Assembly (NCBI GenBank): GCA_045122255.1
Contig: JBGVHJ010000014.1
Location: forward strand, 36,719 to 100,718
DNA from: Eubacteriales bacterium
GTDB lineage: Bacteria > Bacillota > Clostridia > Oscillospirales > CAG-272
DNA length: 64,000 nt
Reading direction: 5' to 3'
Of the stretch, positions 2,016-4,718 are shown in pieces (position 1 is the first letter of the stretch; each line of letters begins with the position of its first letter). Below the pieces are notes generated by a model. It was not told the origin of the DNA and did not search any database. It was given only the letters and a program-made list of their open reading frames with translations. The translations under genes and the position numbers were made by a program.

Positions 2016-4718
2016 TTGAGGCGTTTTTTATCGGATTATGGTGAAAATATACGCATGGGCGCTGAGGGAGTGAGCGGACTTGTAAATCTTTCCGCGAATC
2101 TGCCTGACGGCGTGGATCTCGGCGAGGCGGCGCTGGCTTTCAATGCTATATACAGCCAAGGTAAGAGTGGCAAGGCGTTTTCTGCGGCCAAGAATATGGA
2201 GCTGCTCTCTCCCGAGCAGAGGCAGTACGCTTATAATCTCGGTATTATGGATAAAGTGCTGGATGGGGTGAGGGCGAAGAACGCAGCCGCCGAGATTTCG
2301 GGAGAAAATGACGGTAAGGTATTGCAAAAGGACGGCGTTGGTGATACAATAAAAGAAAATGAACAGGGGGATATAAATAGTGAACAACAAAAAGCAGAAC
2401 GAGCAGAAGCACAGTTTGCTTTTGACGGAGGAGCAGAAAGCAGAACTTTTGAAAGCACGAGCGGAACGCGAACAGAGGATGAAGACAGATCCCGAGTACA
2501 GGGCGAAGATAGAGGAACGTCGCAGAAAGTTGGAGGAGCACTCACCTCTGATAGGAGAATCAATAGACTAAATCCTAAAGAAATCAATGTTGATCTTTCT
2601 GATACCTTGCAGATAGACAAAGAGCACCTTCTTTATGAGCCTCAGCAAAAGTTAATCAATGAATACGGTATTGAGTGTTACATAATAAAAGAACGCTCAT
2701 GGCACAGGTCGTCTCCTGCCGGTACATATAAAGGCAAAGTTTATATGTCGGAAATCTTTTCGGGGAATTTGCTTGCAACGGTAGTGCCCCATGAAGCTAC
2801 ACACGCAATGAAGCAACTTAATTATCAGCCTTACCTTGATTTGATAGATAGGCTTCCCGATATGTTAGATATGTCTGCAGAGGCTACAGAAGATATGTTC
2901 AATTGGATAGCGGGACATTGTGGTTTTGATTTCCTTGCTATGAGCAGATCGGAAGGTATGCACTTTTATGACGAAATGAATGCTGCAATATATGGTTTCT
3001 ACAAAACCTCGATGTGGGAAAGTGACGGATATGCAGAATGGGTACCTAATGCTTTCTATGACTTTGATTCATATATCGCAGAGCTTGAGGCGATTCACGA
3101 GCAATTCAAAAAAGATATTCAAGCGCGCAAGGTTGAATCATATAAGCAAGTTGATAGCACTACCTCCGATGTGCAGCAGGCGAAAAGCGATCAGGCAAGC
3201 TCATCGGAGTGGGATGCAGAGAGGATCAAGGACGGAAAGGTAGAGAAGGCGAAGCCGATTTCTGAGATCATCGAGCGGATCCGTCACGATTTCGGGATCC
3301 ACATCACCAAGGGTCACGTGCGCGGCAAGGGTGTGCTGGGCCAATACAGCCGCAAAAATCACGGCATCAGAACGAAGATCGCCAACGATCTTCCAACAGT
3401 GGCACACGAGCTTGGTCACGCTCTTGATCAAAGATACAGTCTTACCGACAAGAGCAAGCTGACGAAGGAGATGCGCTCGGAGCTTATAAACGCCCTGGGC
3501 GACCTGAAGGACTCATACAAGCAGAATTTGTGGGTAAGTGAGGGCTTTGCGGAGTATCTCAGACGTTTCCTTCAGAACAGAGACGACGCGACGCGGAGCT
3601 ATCCCGAATTTACAAAGCATTTTCTTAATTCGCTGTCAAAGGCTGACCGCGTTCTTATGGACACCTTTGCCGACGAGATCAACGCATATTACGCTTTGGA
3701 TGCTGATACGGCGACAAGCTCGATCAGGCTCCGCGAGGAGGGAACACCCGACGCGAGAACTGCTCTTGAAAAGGCGAAGGAGATGGGCGACGGTGTATAT
3801 CAGGCTTGGGTGGATGCTAACCACGGTATAAGGCTTTTTGACGAGGCTACGGGTGGAGACACTTACAAGCTTGCCGCAAATGCGGCTTACAGCGACGCTA
3901 TTGCCGGGCAGATCATTACAGGGGATCTTACCGACGCTAACGGTCAATACGTAAGAATACTTACTGTTTCTTCGTTAGAGAGAGAGTCATTGCAAGTCAC
4001 AAAGTTAATTGGAGTTTCAAAAGATAAATTTGAATCTAAATATGGAACAAAAAAAGAAAGAGACACAGGTAGTCTGAGGGGACAAACTGATAAAACAGAC
4101 ATCCCGAACCCTTCTACGAAGGCTCAGCACACCGCTGGTGCTCTTTCCACTATTAGTATACCACAAGAAAAAGGAAATGTCAACAAGAAAATTTCGACAA
4201 ATTCTGAAAATGCAAAATCGGATGCTTGGTCTAAGGTTGATGAGATCATAGAATCTACGATCGACGACGTGCTGGTGCAGTACGGCCAGGGAAAGGCTCA
4301 CGGCGACGTAGTGACGGTTTTGCGTGACGGTAAGGAGGAGTTCTGGAAGATAAACGATCCTAAGAAGTTAAATTCTCTCGATGTTGAATTTAACAAAAAG
4401 AACCGAGTTATTGTGGCGCAATTTGCTTCAAAGGAAGCCATTGCAAATACTCCACATTCTCCTCGGTTCAATAACAGTATACCACCTTCTGGCGAAAATG
4501 TCAATAGGAATTTTTCGACAAATTCAGAAATGGGCTCCCATTCTATCTCCACTATGCTTGAGGCGAGGTTTGGGCCCGGTGTCAATGATTATCTCAACAC
4601 CTTTATAAAGGACCTGAACGGCGCGAAGGCGCAGAGTGGCGGCGTTGTAGGCGGAGCGTTTTTTATAAATATATATACCATGTTAACCATTTCTTCATTA
4701 TTTTTTGTTATAATATAA
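2016..4718 (+). CDS. Mosaic or remnant phage-type large polyvalent protein with two zincin (HExxH) metallopeptidase-like domains; true start uncertain (possibly ATG 2055)
   Basis: VVPHEATH and TVAHELGH...EGFAE motifs; two 'SIPxxxxNVNxxxS' linkers typical of polyvalent-protein module ends; alternating GC-rich and AT-rich segments; no good RBS at TTG 2016. Confidence 0.6.
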   Translation: MRRFLSDYGENIRMGAEGVSGLVNLSANLPDGVDLGEAALAFNAIYSQGKSGKAFSAAKNMELLSPEQRQYAYNLGIMDKVLDGVRAKNAAAEISGENDGKVLQKDGVGDTIKENEQGDINSEQQKAERAEAQFAFDGGAESRTFESTSGTRTEDEDRSRVQGEDRGTSQKVGGALTSDRRINRLNPKEINVDLSDTLQIDKEHLLYEPQQKLINEYGIECYIIKERSWHRSSPAGTYKGKVYMSEIFSGNLLATVVPHEATHAMKQLNYQPYLDLIDRLPDMLDMSAEATEDMFNWIAGHCGFDFLAMSRSEGMHFYDEMNAAIYGFYKTSMWESDGYAEWVPNAFYDFDSYIAELEAIHEQFKKDIQARKVESYKQVDSTTSDVQQAKSDQASSSEWDAERIKDGKVEKAKPISEIIERIRHDFGIHITKGHVRGKGVLGQYSRKNHGIRTKIANDLPTVAHELGHALDQRYSLTDKSKLTKEMRSELINALGDLKDSYKQNLWVSEGFAEYLRRFLQNRDDATRSYPEFTKHFLNSLSKADRVLMDTFADEINAYYALDADTATSSIRLREEGTPDARTALEKAKEMGDGVYQAWVDANHGIRLFDEATGGDTYKLAANAAYSDAIAGQIITGDLTDANGQYVRILTVSSLERESLQVTKLIGVSKDKFESKYGTKKERDTGSLRGQTDKTDIPNPSTKAQHTAGALSTISIPQEKGNVNKKISTNSENAKSDAWSKVDEIIESTIDDVLVQYGQGKAHGDVVTVLRDGKEEFWKINDPKKLNSLDVEFNKKNRVIVAQFASKEAIANTPHSPRFNNSIPPSGENVNRNFSTNSEMGSHSISTMLEARFGPGVNDYLNTFIKDLNGAKAQSGGVVGGAFFINIYTMLTISSLFFVII
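2322..2350 (+). promoter_or_regulatory. Internal sigma-A promoter embedded in the polyvalent ORF
   Basis: TTGCAA-N17-TACAAT with extended -10 TG; RBS AGGGGG (2365-2370) and GTG (2380) follow. Confidence 0.6.
2380..2571 (+). CDS. Overprinted 63-aa charged helical protein in an alternative frame
   Basis: Has its own promoter and RBS 9 nt upstream; sequence is protein-like (LTEEQKAELLKARAEREQRMKTDPEYRAKIEE). Confidence 0.55.
   Translation: MNNKKQNEQKHSLLLTEEQKAELLKARAEREQRMKTDPEYRAKIEERRRKLEEHSPLIGESID
4049..4150 (-). ncRNA. Candidate antisense structured sRNA 1 (three-way junction, U-tract end)
   Basis: GAAAGAGCACCAG pairs with CUGUGUCUCUUUC, followed by U7; inner CUGAG/CUCAG stem; hairpins CCUUCGUAGAAGG and GGGA...UCCC; promoter directly upstream. 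Confidence 0.5.
4155..4183 (-). promoter_or_regulatory. Antisense sigma-A promoter 1 within the polyvalent ORF
   Basis: Minus strand TTGACA-N17-TATACT with TG extension. Confidence 0.7.
4395..4471 (-). ncRNA. Candidate antisense hairpin sRNA 2 (U-tract end)
   Basis: GAACCGAG/CUCGGUUC closing stem plus UGUGG/CCACA, GCAAU/AUUGC and GCUUC/GAAGC stems, followed by UUUUU. Confidence 0.5.
4476..4504 (-). promoter_or_regulatory. Antisense sigma-A promoter 2 within the polyvalent ORF
   Basis: Minus strand TTGACA-N17-TATACT with TG extension. Confidence 0.7.

Follow-up and report, generated by a model that had tools for sequence, protein, structure and literature searches.

Positions 4395-4504 of the window (the whole stretch of DNA analysed, 64,000 nucleotides from an Eubacteriales bacterium) carry a promoter-like sequence, a hairpin and a T run on the minus strand, and raise the question of whether a complete RNA gene can lie in frame inside a protein gene. 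Our best explanation, to which we give nearly an even chance, is that this segment is a self-contained small-RNA gene, one of an undescribed class of cassettes trailing the domain modules of polyvalent proteins. We think it highly probable that the cassette is a genuine unit of promoter, RNA and terminator under selection; that its RNAs silence polyvalent genes by antisense action is a more tentative proposal, somewhat short of even.

Layout of the unit and its host gene

The elements of the unit at 4395-4504 (unit 2) lie on the minus strand where the sequence-only reading had placed them: TTGACA, 17-nt spacer, TATACT, stems and T run. The -35 hexamer TTGACA occupies 4504-4499 (plus strand aaT GTC AAt, codons N-V-N), and the extended -10, TGgTATACT, spans 4476-4484 (plus strand AGT ATA CCA, codons S-I-P), with the TG at 4484-4483, within the spacer, and TATACT at 4481-4476. 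With TTGACA, a spacer of 17 +/- 1 bp, TGn and a TATAAT-type -10, the site has the form of a sigma-70/sigma-A extended -10 promoter, and a consensus scan scores it 11/12 plus TG. The sixth nucleotide past the -10 is T (4470) and the seventh is G (4469), so that a pyrimidine-purine step is present; this G is the predicted +1 and also the first paired base of the payload, a 70-nt imperfect hairpin (4469-4400, minus strand) whose family we name hairpin 2. Its 8-bp closing stem joins GAACCGAG at 4469-4462 to CTCGGTTC at 4407-4400, and the further stems are TGTGG/CCACA, (T)GCAAT/ATTGC(G) and GCTTC/GAAGC. The predicted fold reaches -30 kcal/mol (z = -4.88), a value equalled by none of 200 shuffles. 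A terminator-like T5 at 4399-4395 (Lys codons AAA AAG on the plus strand) abuts the closing stem, as in an intrinsic (Rho-independent) terminator, but this stem encloses about 50 nt and not a small loop, and is not a textbook terminator; a simple terminator scan made no call at the closing stem and T5. With its own putative promoter and terminator opposite a coding region, and a short stable hairpin between them, unit 2 has the layout of a cis-antisense RNA.

The twin, unit 1 (4049-4183, minus strand), has identical hexamers (-35 at 4183-4178, -10 at 4160-4155), a closing stem of GAAAGAG (4147-4141) with CTCTTTC (4062-4056), and a T7 at 4055-4049. The claim that the two units share one architecture and differ in payload holds up: hexamers, spacing and TG are common, and the hairpin sequences are unrelated. 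Their promoters repeat directly and in frame at a distance of 321 nt. The A-T-rich stretch 5' of the unit 2 -35 (4505-4530, minus strand), which from its sequence may be an UP-like element, shows DNA-level conservation with unit 1, the A-T-rich stretches of the two units forming a direct repeat (4175-4209 and 4496-4530, 86%). Near-identical stretches occur in C73, L048, L049 and L051, and in L050 and L052 a similar A-T-rich pattern also precedes an intergenic promoter.

Unit 2 lies entirely inside a plus-strand ORF of 900 codons (2016-4718), a point absent from the sequence-only reading. This ORF, which matches no family in Pfam, NCBIfam or PHROG, is, judging by its homologues, what remains of a phage-type polyvalent protein gene after truncation and internal deletion. 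Those homologues are proteins of 1200-1500 aa with 64-75% identity over long stretches; homology is piecewise, and the matches include carriers of LPD38, PBECR3 or ADP-ribosyltransferase domains. LPD38 is described as phage-type only in the portion of Iyer et al. 2017 (PMC5512222) drawn on here. Chromosomal genes flank the relic (GDSL lipase, BspA-type LRR, dUTPase and CobW), and its A-T-rich right-hand junction (4650-4751) takes in the ORF end and the promoter region of the dUTPase gene (4752-5195). The sense ORF has no good promoter in the window, the best plus-strand site upstream scoring 9/12 at 1863-1892, an observation that counts against silencing.

Conservation of promoter DNA

Reverse-complemented, the promoter hexamers become codons of a recurring peptide, S-I-P-x4-N-V-N, and the copies in the window are in-frame direct repeats, just as they should be if the unit were a by-product of that peptide together with a chance hairpin, with no function as nucleic acid. 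We find this barely credible, and comparative data already contradict it. The S-I-P codons used are rare in this genome (AGT is 9% of Ser, ATA 27% of Ile and CCA 10% of Pro codons; joint probability 2.4e-4), and the peptide varies where the hexamers do not. The codon following S-I is invariably nCA (Pro, Ala or Ser) and hence always supplies TGn on the minus strand; the residue preceding Val may be N, D, F, Y or T, with a codon that ends in T every time; and in G289 a change from an S to an I codon converts TATACT to TATAAT. Because rare codons are used, and because residues vary while hexamers, spacing and TG stay constant, conservation, as judged from these alignments, is acting on the promoter DNA and not on the peptide.

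The unit promoters fit this organism's own consensus. Exact TTGACA-N17-TATA[AC]T occurs at 208 sites in the 2.4-Mb genome, most of them with TG, where we estimate a chance expectation of about 0.6. Just five of the 208 lead into a closing stem of 7 bp or more with a T run, and three of those five are polyvalent-gene units; put differently, hairpin and T run follow 3/3 polyvalent promoters and 2/205 other consensus promoters of this genome (stems of at least 7 bp), an enrichment that the by-product reading leaves unexplained, as it does the covariation of the hairpin. Among this genome's ORFs of 400 aa or more (1606 kb in all), antisense sites scoring at least 11/12 number 34. Their rarity, with the enrichment of hairpin and T run, bears out the earlier argument that two such units are beyond chance.

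Hairpin 2 as an RNA family

Among eight copies of hairpin 2, 7 of 24 pairs show compensatory changes, a covariation score matched by none of 500 shuffles, and 95% of cells are paired; sliding the partners brings this down to 46% or less. Extending the set to 13 copies gives 17 of 24 compensatory pairs, in an alignment that was itself fitted to the model. G-U pairs favour the minus strand by 11 to 1, and the minus strand gives the better fold in 6/6 units. On this comparative evidence hairpin 2 is a conserved structured RNA family. The covariance models of Rfam 15 give no match at E up to 1 across window positions 1800-4800, and in six related loci Rfam returns only tRNAs and two sub-threshold matches. 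The unit 1 hairpin also has homologues with compensatory changes, in L049 and G192 (L067), both in a non-coding context.

The same strand preference bears on a possible role in the sense mRNA, where the A run and hairpin at a module boundary would pause or frameshift ribosomes so that modules fold or release separately. Lys codons do precede each hairpin on the plus strand, an in-frame A AAA AAA/G heptamer is found in three of the first six units (unit 1, L049 and L051), and a -1 shift would reach a stop in a few to about 25 codons. By the usual rule, programmed -1 frameshifting calls for an X XXY YYZ heptamer in frame and, past a spacer of 5-9 nt, a structure. Unit 2, however, reads C AAA AAG with no spacer between heptamer and stem, C73 lacks a slippery site, fold and G-U bias both point to the minus strand, units persist in non-coding arrays, and the promoter is left unexplained. 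We consider this role very improbable.

Cis-antisense RNAs of the OOP or RNA-OUT type should offer an accessible, YUNR-type loop for first contact. Hairpin 2 has no such loop; its apical loop is small (4 nt) and variable between copies, and its unpaired stretches GGAGAA, GGAGTA and TAAC are invariant. For both reasons its sequence looks more like that of a protein-binding RNA than of a kissing antisense RNA. The units could be real small-RNA genes that are not antisense regulators, each hairpin family being a structured RNA with its own protein or host-sensor partner, expressed by host polymerase upon DNA entry or in lysogeny, and serving either as the RNA equivalent of the opposite strand's protein arsenal or as a host-domesticated set in chromosomal arrays. 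This is unlikely, if far from negligible. The covarying stems and invariant internal loops, found in non-coding copies too, fit it well, as do a paired 5' end and U tail suited to a stable RNA, copies that lack a detectable polyvalent gene, and the L072 array (below), whose differing payloads lie upstream of an ordinary gene. Yet no partner, motif or family has been found for it, Rfam included, and it does not explain why units invariably lie opposite polyvalent ORFs, in antisense, and behind domain ends. Payload families moreover accompany particular protein domains, and conservation may therefore be partly at the protein level.

A class of cassettes in related genomes

Counting as a unit any promoter of at least 11/12 that leads to a closing stem of 7 bp or longer and a T run, we find 50 units, each with a closed hairpin from the predicted +1, in 20 sources. 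In 49/50 the sixth nucleotide past the -10 is a pyrimidine and in 49/50 the seventh is a purine; the first paired base falls at the sixth to eighth nucleotide in 39/50, and the median hairpin is 68 nt. That homologous tails should keep hairpin and T run was thus seen in all six first examined and then in this larger set. One source is an intact 4934-aa polyvalent ORF in G289, where 20 sites lie antisense and 17 of these are followed by hairpin and T run, while the entire plus strand of the 20.8-kb contig has one site. Four of the G289 promoters follow Pfam-matched domains, beginning 21-74 aa past the match ends; in C73 and L051 the corresponding distances from domain end to promoter are 36 and 28 aa. 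The parent domains of the tails are MuF_C, PBECR3 (an RNase-type nuclease), ART-PolyVal and LPD3, in keeping with the earlier guess of RNase- or toxin-like parents, and LPD23 is also present in the host ORFs. The full-length relatives fit the definition of a polyvalent protein, with many unrelated conflict domains in one polypeptide of a phage or conjugative element, and the host ORFs belong to the class as Iyer et al. 2017 (PMC5512222) present it in the portion drawn on here. The words "antisense", "promoter", "small RNA" and "linker" have no occurrences in the main text of that paper (supplements aside).

In other genomes the hairpins form non-coding tandem arrays. Hairpin 1 or 2 lies within non-coding sequence in L067, L069, L070 and L072, where units persist with nothing to pair with in cis, an observation that counts against silencing. 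L072 has six co-oriented promoters of at least 11/12 in about 1 kb, four of which lead to a closed hairpin of 67-74 nt followed by a T run. Both there and in G289 variable stretches of 60-100 nt are separated by a conserved block, about 40 nt long, that consists of T run and promoter. With the LPD38-like region of C73 as query, a relative is found in only one of the five hairpin-holding genomes tested.

These dozens of look-alike cassettes suggest, from their sequences, that giant phage genes carry a hidden second layer of RNA products. A stronger version holds that the giant polyvalent genes of gut-Clostridia phages are two-layered, with sense protein modules and antisense RNAs that themselves serve as effectors or immunity factors. 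The linker after many modules would then code for a separate small structured RNA with a host-type promoter and a terminator of its own, as many as 20 of them in one gene, expressed from DNA entry or throughout lysogeny, and the RNAs would outlive the modules as chromosomal arrays. We think this doubtful as a whole, though well worth keeping in mind.

Possible recombination at the promoters

L049, from another species, has the same locus with the same flanks as the window relic (the right-hand junction aligns with L049 7620-7737). The suggestion that tails were kept while domains were lost agrees with this orthologous relic, which retains both hairpins where the plus frame is broken, and with the non-coding arrays elsewhere. 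Identity between window and L049 is 90-92% over the units and 80-88% in the flanks, not clearly higher, and for that reason this species pair is no demonstration of selection.

The window is one unit short relative to L049, its positions 4154-4194 align with two different L049 promoters, and the same hairpins are joined to differing promoter copies. In a DNA comparison, homology to the units stops at 4048/4147 and at 4395-4403/4485, and homology blocks in other contigs end at the T run and in the spacer. Crossovers inside promoters and hairpins linked to exchanged promoter copies would be natural if the tails were DNA-level junctions for module shuffling or deletion by homologous recombination, the hairpins being DNA structures and the likeness to promoters secondary. 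Recombinational variability of polyvalent cassettes is raised in the portion of Iyer et al. 2017 (PMC5512222) drawn on here. For homologous recombination, though, overall identity suffices; exact hexamers, a 17-bp distance, TG, a pyrimidine-purine step and a variable spacer are not needed, and the T run and 11-to-1 G-U bias are left unexplained. We rate such junctions as improbable for the main function.

A unit at the 5' end of the L049 polyvalent gene (-35 at 4117) has its predicted start about 9 nt inside the ORF, and its predicted RNA crosses the ATG and ribosome-binding region up to a T7 run, a placement that supports antisense action. Three homologues begin M(N)AVNNSIS at the matching point.

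A proposed small-RNA gene and its possible action

In the small-RNA gene that we favour, a host-type sigma-A promoter with extended -10 would start transcription at the purine that opens the 70-nt hairpin, and the T run right behind the closing stem would end it, giving a predicted RNA of about 75 nt with its 5' and 3' ends paired together. Contigs from three RNA libraries, which carry no strand or end information, extend 100-250 nt past the units into other contexts. The cassettes of this class lie past the C-terminal ends of modules (LPD3, MuF_C, ART-PolyVal, PBECR3) in giant genes. Host polymerase would make the RNAs constitutively; they would pair with complementary polyvalent mRNA, both in cis and from incoming related elements, and might keep module-bearing mRNA silent through duplex cleavage or start-site occlusion, by analogy with lambda OOP, IS10 RNA-OUT or 3'-overlapping type I antitoxins. 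The promoter copies may double as recombination points between modules. The window copy may be a fossil of the silencing system, no longer important to the host.

Each of these models matches in part. Lambda OOP RNA (about 77 nt) has its own constitutive promoter and intrinsic terminator, is encoded opposite the 3' end of a coding region in the phage, and works through duplex formation and RNase III. The likeness is in the short antisense layout with its own (here predicted) promoter and terminator; OOP is, however, single and partly outside the ORF, whereas the present units are wholly in frame inside one, promoter included, and are repeated up to 20 per gene with differing payloads. IS10 RNA-OUT, a hairpin RNA of about 70 nt, has a strong promoter located within the gene's 5' end and is transcribed outward across the start codon. 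Its layout is that of the L049 5'-end unit, but RNA-OUT pairs through a defined loop and sits at a gene start, where the units have small, variable apical loops and lie mostly at internal module ends. Type I antitoxins of Firmicutes prophages (RatA, SR4) are antisense RNAs overlapping the 3' end of the coding region for a toxic product; some modules here are likewise nuclease or ADP-ribosyltransferase domains, but the units are shorter (60-100-nt hairpins), and their would-be targets are internal modules of a giant ORF with no small hydrophobic toxin ORF. Unit 2 was considered as a type I toxin-antitoxin pair and rejected, the only opposite ORF being the 900-codon relic.

LhrC-type tandem sRNAs, ToxI repeats and CRISPR arrays share the arrangement of tandem, co-oriented short units. 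The pattern of sRNA families is reversed here, with the promoter constant and the RNA variable, and each variable part, unlike those of such arrays, is a closed hairpin with its own predicted start and stop.

If transcribed, the units would amount to unusually dense dual coding, with complete RNA genes in frame inside a protein gene, behind many modules; polyvalent proteins, hitherto treated as proteins alone, would gain a regulatory or effector RNA layer; and several new structured RNA families, with alignments at hand, would be added for uncultured gut Oscillospiraceae and their phages. The recurrent linker peptide ([S/I]-I-x5-x-V-[N/K]) would be a translated promoter. Weak peptide-profile matches, among those read back to DNA, show the promoter pattern AGTATA-N17-TGTCAA, many with in-frame stops, a practical warning that ordinary promoters can surface in peptide-profile searches.

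Two antisense units in the relic of a polyvalent gene

Unit 2, on the minus strand, consists of a -35 element TTGACA (4504-4499), a 17-nt spacer with TGG as its last bases, a -10 element TATACT (4481-4476) and, after six further nucleotides, an imperfect hairpin of 70 nt whose outer stem pairs GAACCGAG (4469-4462) with CTCGGTTC (4407-4400), followed by TTTTT (4399-4395). A consensus scan scores this promoter at 11/12 with TG, and finds a second site with identical hexamers and spacing, that of the twin unit 1, at 4183..4155. The hairpin folds at -30 kcal/mol (z = -4.88; 0/200 shuffles fold as well). 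The sequence-only reading had described a second antisense transcription unit here, with the same promoter architecture as its twin and an unrelated hairpin payload; coordinates, consensus scan and fold bear it out in every detail. Separated by 321 nt, the two promoters form an in-frame direct repeat whose plus-strand translation is S-I-P-x4-N-V-N in both copies (AGT ATA complements TATACT; aaT GTC AAy complements TTGACA).

Other candidates in this region were rejected. A minus-strand ORF within hairpin 2 has a conserved ATG, but its frame is broken by indels of 2 nt and 3 nt. An integron attC-like site was dismissed by eye, the closing stems having no GTTRRRY, the attC core motif. A possible third unit at minus 1991..1963 is an ordinary promoter and no cassette: TTGACA-17-TAAAAT lies about 60 nt upstream of the RBS and ATG (1899) of a BspA-type LRR gene, and this promoter is conserved (3784-3870) in L049, the orthologous locus of another species.

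Unit 2 is located inside a plus-strand ORF of 900 codons (2016-4718) that matches no Pfam and no NCBIfam family and has one PHROGs match only (E = 0.059), nothing usable. Over long stretches the ORF is 64-75% identical to proteins of 1200-1500 aa, and because other matches carry LPD38, PBECR3 or ADP-ribosyltransferase domains, its homologues are identified as polyvalent proteins (giant phage-type multi-domain conflict proteins). Sequence comparison marks the ORF as a truncated mosaic, with residues 8-646 corresponding to N-terminal parts of polyvalent proteins, residues 745-804 to a stretch recurring in LPD38-carrying homologues, and residues 820-882 to a later part of the LPD38-like region, past which the frame enters the A-T-rich dUTPase promoter region. 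The flanks of this relic are chromosomal, with a GDSL lipase and the BspA-type LRR gene on one side and dUTPase and CobW on the other.

L049 corresponds to this chromosomal locus and has the LRR-side and dUTPase-side flanks seen in the window. A polyvalent relic lies between these flanks in both species (L049 3760-7740, window 1900-4800), and is therefore older than the species split. Its decay differs, leaving one 900-codon ORF in the window and several broken frames in L049, where at least five units lie on one strand within 3.4 kb, among them almost identical versions of hairpins 1 and 2 at points where the plus frame is interrupted. Two different L049 promoters align with window 4154-4194, from which it follows that the window has lost one unit by recombination between promoters. 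A purely DNA-level recombination role for the tails (the module ends that bear the promoter-hairpin cassettes) accounts for such crossovers, but leaves the hexamers, the spacing, the TG, the start-site step described below, the T run and the strand bias unexplained.

Units in intact polyvalent genes

An intact 4934-aa ORF with LPD3, MuF_C, ART-PolyVal and PBECR3 domains is found in another genome (G289:C2, loci L092 and L093, 2408-17209). Its antisense strand carries 20 TTGACA-17-TATA[AC]T sites, between 5484 and 14211, and behind 17 of the 20 come a closing stem of 8-15 bp and a T run. Over the full 20.8-kb contig, the plus strand has a single site of this kind, which lies outside the ORF. 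Four promoters located after Pfam-matched domains begin 21-74 aa past the match ends. At 6081-6747 the units are spaced 150-190 nt with no domain between (those at 6270 and 6597 are near-duplicates), and here the tails line up as an in-frame array resembling the window insert.

C73, a contig of the window's own genome, has a 2255-aa open frame with one unit 36 aa past a MuF_C domain, and in the related locus L051 a unit lies 28 aa past PBECR3. Module and tail together form, in both, an insert at one common point of the LPD38-like region, where 11 more distant relatives lack any insert. In other genera, another four polyvalent ORFs each carry one or two antisense units; their loci were picked via promoter-like peptide matches, so only the hairpins and T runs are independent evidence. 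The C73 polyvalent frame (3-6767) is cut by the contig start, with chromosomal smpB and ftsK downstream, and the element appears to end beside smpB. A second antisense site on C73 (TTGACA-18-TATAAT, -35 at 2097) has a weak closing stem.

Hairpins and T runs behind the promoters

Exact TTGACA-N17-TATA[AC]T sites number 208 in the 2.4 Mb of the own genome, most with TG, against an estimated chance expectation of about 0.6; this is the organism's own consensus. Because it is unusually sharp, it can aid annotation in this family of uncultured Oscillospiraceae. In 12 of the 208, the 130 nt that follow contain a closing stem of 6 bp or more together with a T run. The stem reaches 7 bp or more in five of those 12, and three of the five are units in polyvalent ORFs (two in the window, one on C73). 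The hairpin and T run after unit promoters are not there by chance, and the view that the units are a chance by-product is poorly supported. The first tails examined all fold (6/6) into a closed hairpin ending at the T run, with stems unrelated in sequence.

Scanning 23 sources (the first 5 kb of the window, C73, the G289 contig and 20 of ~97 loci) for a promoter of at least 11/12, a closing stem of at least 7 bp and a T run yields 50 units in 20 of the sources, with a median hairpin of 68 nt. The sixth nucleotide after the -10 is a pyrimidine in 49/50 units and the seventh a purine in 49/50 (the seventh is a purine in 163/208 own-genome consensus promoters), while the first paired base is the sixth to eighth nucleotide in 39/50. 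Given this start-point step, the first paired base and the T run, the predicted transcript is therefore the hairpin itself, from first base to U tail.

Promoter or peptide

The evidence favours a promoter rather than a peptide as the element conserved in the S-I-P-x4-N-V-N stretch. Its codons are rare in the own genome (AGT 9% of Ser, ATA 27% of Ile, CCA 10% of Pro, GTC 23% of Val), with a joint probability of 2.4e-4. The tails of L048, L049 and L051, found with a pattern that fixed neither the Val codon nor the -10 codons, have TTGACA-17-TGnTATACT in 3/3. The codon following S-I is CCA, GCA or TCA: the first base, which is the free 'n' of TGn, varies and changes the amino acid, and the last two, the complement of TG, are unchanged. 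The residue preceding Val is N, D, F, Y or T, its codon always ending in T, and in G289 a Ser-to-Ile change converts TATACT into TATAAT. Units gathered by hexamer search are invalid for counting hexamer conservation; copies found by hairpin homology are valid, and a near-consensus promoter stands at the same distance in 6/9 copies from the DNA search, and a promoter-like site ends within 2 nt of the model start in 4/5 covariance-model copies.

A 28-column tail peptide profile, run on 201 family genomes, gave strong matches from the own genome only; the 42 weak matches examined were rejected as mostly ordinary promoters read as peptide. Peptide-derived degenerate DNA patterns for tails had no match in a viral contigs collection, and a metagenome-contig scan with such patterns returned nine loci, none with a real tail.

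Conserved RNA structure

Eight aligned copies of hairpin 2 have 95.2% of cells paired (at most 46% with partners slid), both-side changes in 7/24 pairs and a covariation score matched by 0/500 shuffles. Its covariance model found four more genomes among 150, and with 13 copies there are compensatory changes in 17/24 pairs and 93.8% of cells paired, in a model-fitted alignment that favours structure. Compensatory changes recur in other families: AGAGTTAGA/TCTAACTCT versus AGAGTTAGC/GCTAACTCT and GGAC/GTCC versus GGGC/GCCC in the MuF_C tail, altering amino acids on both sides; GGTAGTACTG, GGTAGCAGTG and GGTAGCAATG in the PBECR3 tail, each with a matching partner; and GGAACGG, GGAACCG, GGAATCGG and GGAGTCAG in a third hairpin family. 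A search of Rfam yielded no match for window 1800-4800, and in six related loci just tRNAs and two sub-threshold hits. Comparison of the copies establishes a unit architecture, its repetition and constraint at the RNA level.

In the strand test on hairpin 2, 11 cells are G-U only on the minus reading and 1 only on the plus, and the minus strand folds better than the plus in 6/6 units, for which base composition may partly account. A pausing or frameshift signal acting on the sense strand is a poorly supported explanation.

Copies outside polyvalent genes and the proposed role

When 401 family genomes were searched at the DNA level, six other genomes showed matches limited to hairpin 2, either with its promoter or without it, and one showed hairpin 1. 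Several hairpin copies lie in sequence with stops in all frames, some as tandem arrays. One such array (L072, G390:C114, minus 1053-1975) has six co-oriented consensus promoters in about 1 kb of non-coding sequence, four of them with 67-74-nt closed hairpins and T runs; an ordinary gene lies downstream of it, the array stops at the promoter of a membrane-protein gene, and its surroundings show no polyvalent homology. In tblastn, 23 polyvalent proteins matched loci L066, L067 and L068 in hairpin stretches only, and gave no match in L069, L070 or L072. The C73 LPD38-like region, as a protein query, has a relative in one of five hairpin-holding genomes; a PF18857 (LPD38) search of the five gave no match, but its control was silent everywhere, so this result is uninformative. 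Neither window 3950-4600 nor the L072 array matched GenBank phages by blastn.

In a DNA run from a bovine-gut sample (X2), summed contig depth is 39-85 over hairpin 1 (4020-4163) and 56 over hairpin 2 (4404-4451), up from about 4. In contigs of more abundant organisms the match covers precisely the blocks 4048-4147 and ~4395/4403-4485, that is T run and hairpin and, for unit 2, also the -10, with homology stopping at the unit borders; both hairpins occur in other contexts in other organisms of this sample. Three metatranscriptome runs contain small shares of the stretch, as contigs only, without strand or ends: 3387-3533 and 3639-3789 (X18), 3741-3952 and 4599-4642 (X19), and 4105-4162, 4407-4485 and 4476-4643 (X20, pieces of longer records with other contexts and 88-95% likeness). 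These contigs give no verdict on the presence or absence of the predicted small RNA.

The whole analysis is based on metagenome-assembled genomes and sequence analysis alone, from which we infer that the RNA is made and what its role may be. The favoured role is antisense silencing, in which the unit RNA would pair with the polyvalent mRNA, because the units are always antisense to polyvalent ORFs, because they come after the ends of domain modules, and because the L049 5'-end unit would cross the polyvalent start codon and ribosome-binding region. The main rival is that the units encode structured RNAs with partners of their own. It is favoured, and silencing disfavoured, by hairpins that persist, their stems covarying and their internal loops invariant, in places with no remaining polyvalent ORF, and by the small and variable apical loops of hairpin 2.

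Short antisense RNAs with their own promoter and terminator are known from lambda OOP, IS10 RNA-OUT and the type I antitoxin RNAs, and the units have this logic in common with them. To our knowledge, unlike the units, none of these lies complete and in frame inside an ORF, occurs in up to twenty copies per ORF, or pairs a constant promoter with variable payloads. Full-text searches of the literature, covering main texts, found nothing on antisense units in polyvalent genes and nothing closer than these systems. The main text of the founding paper on polyvalent proteins (Iyer et al. 2017, PMC5512222) makes no mention of antisense RNAs, promoters or linkers.

Other promoter-associated sequences

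A consensus promoter on own-genome contig C75 (plus, ~2074-2180), outside any polyvalent gene, leads into a 9-bp closing stem (GCATCTAAT/GTTAGGTGC) with a T run behind it, and is a candidate for a further small RNA of the same build. The degenerate tail pattern also picked out, in loci L050 and L052 (MAGs that both come from a single sample), an intergenic promoter, TTGACA-17-TATTAT, that has the upstream GAATTTGTCGAA stretch in common and drives a short ORF rich in Cys (MICPKCGKEYNE...). This promoter could be related to the tail promoters, or the match could be due to chance. A perfect 12/12 promoter in the window (10742..10714 minus) overlaps a palindrome (GTGCTATAATAATTATAGCAC) and a plus-strand 10/12 site, and 10685-10742 is a divergent promoter region beside an AraC-type regulator gene.
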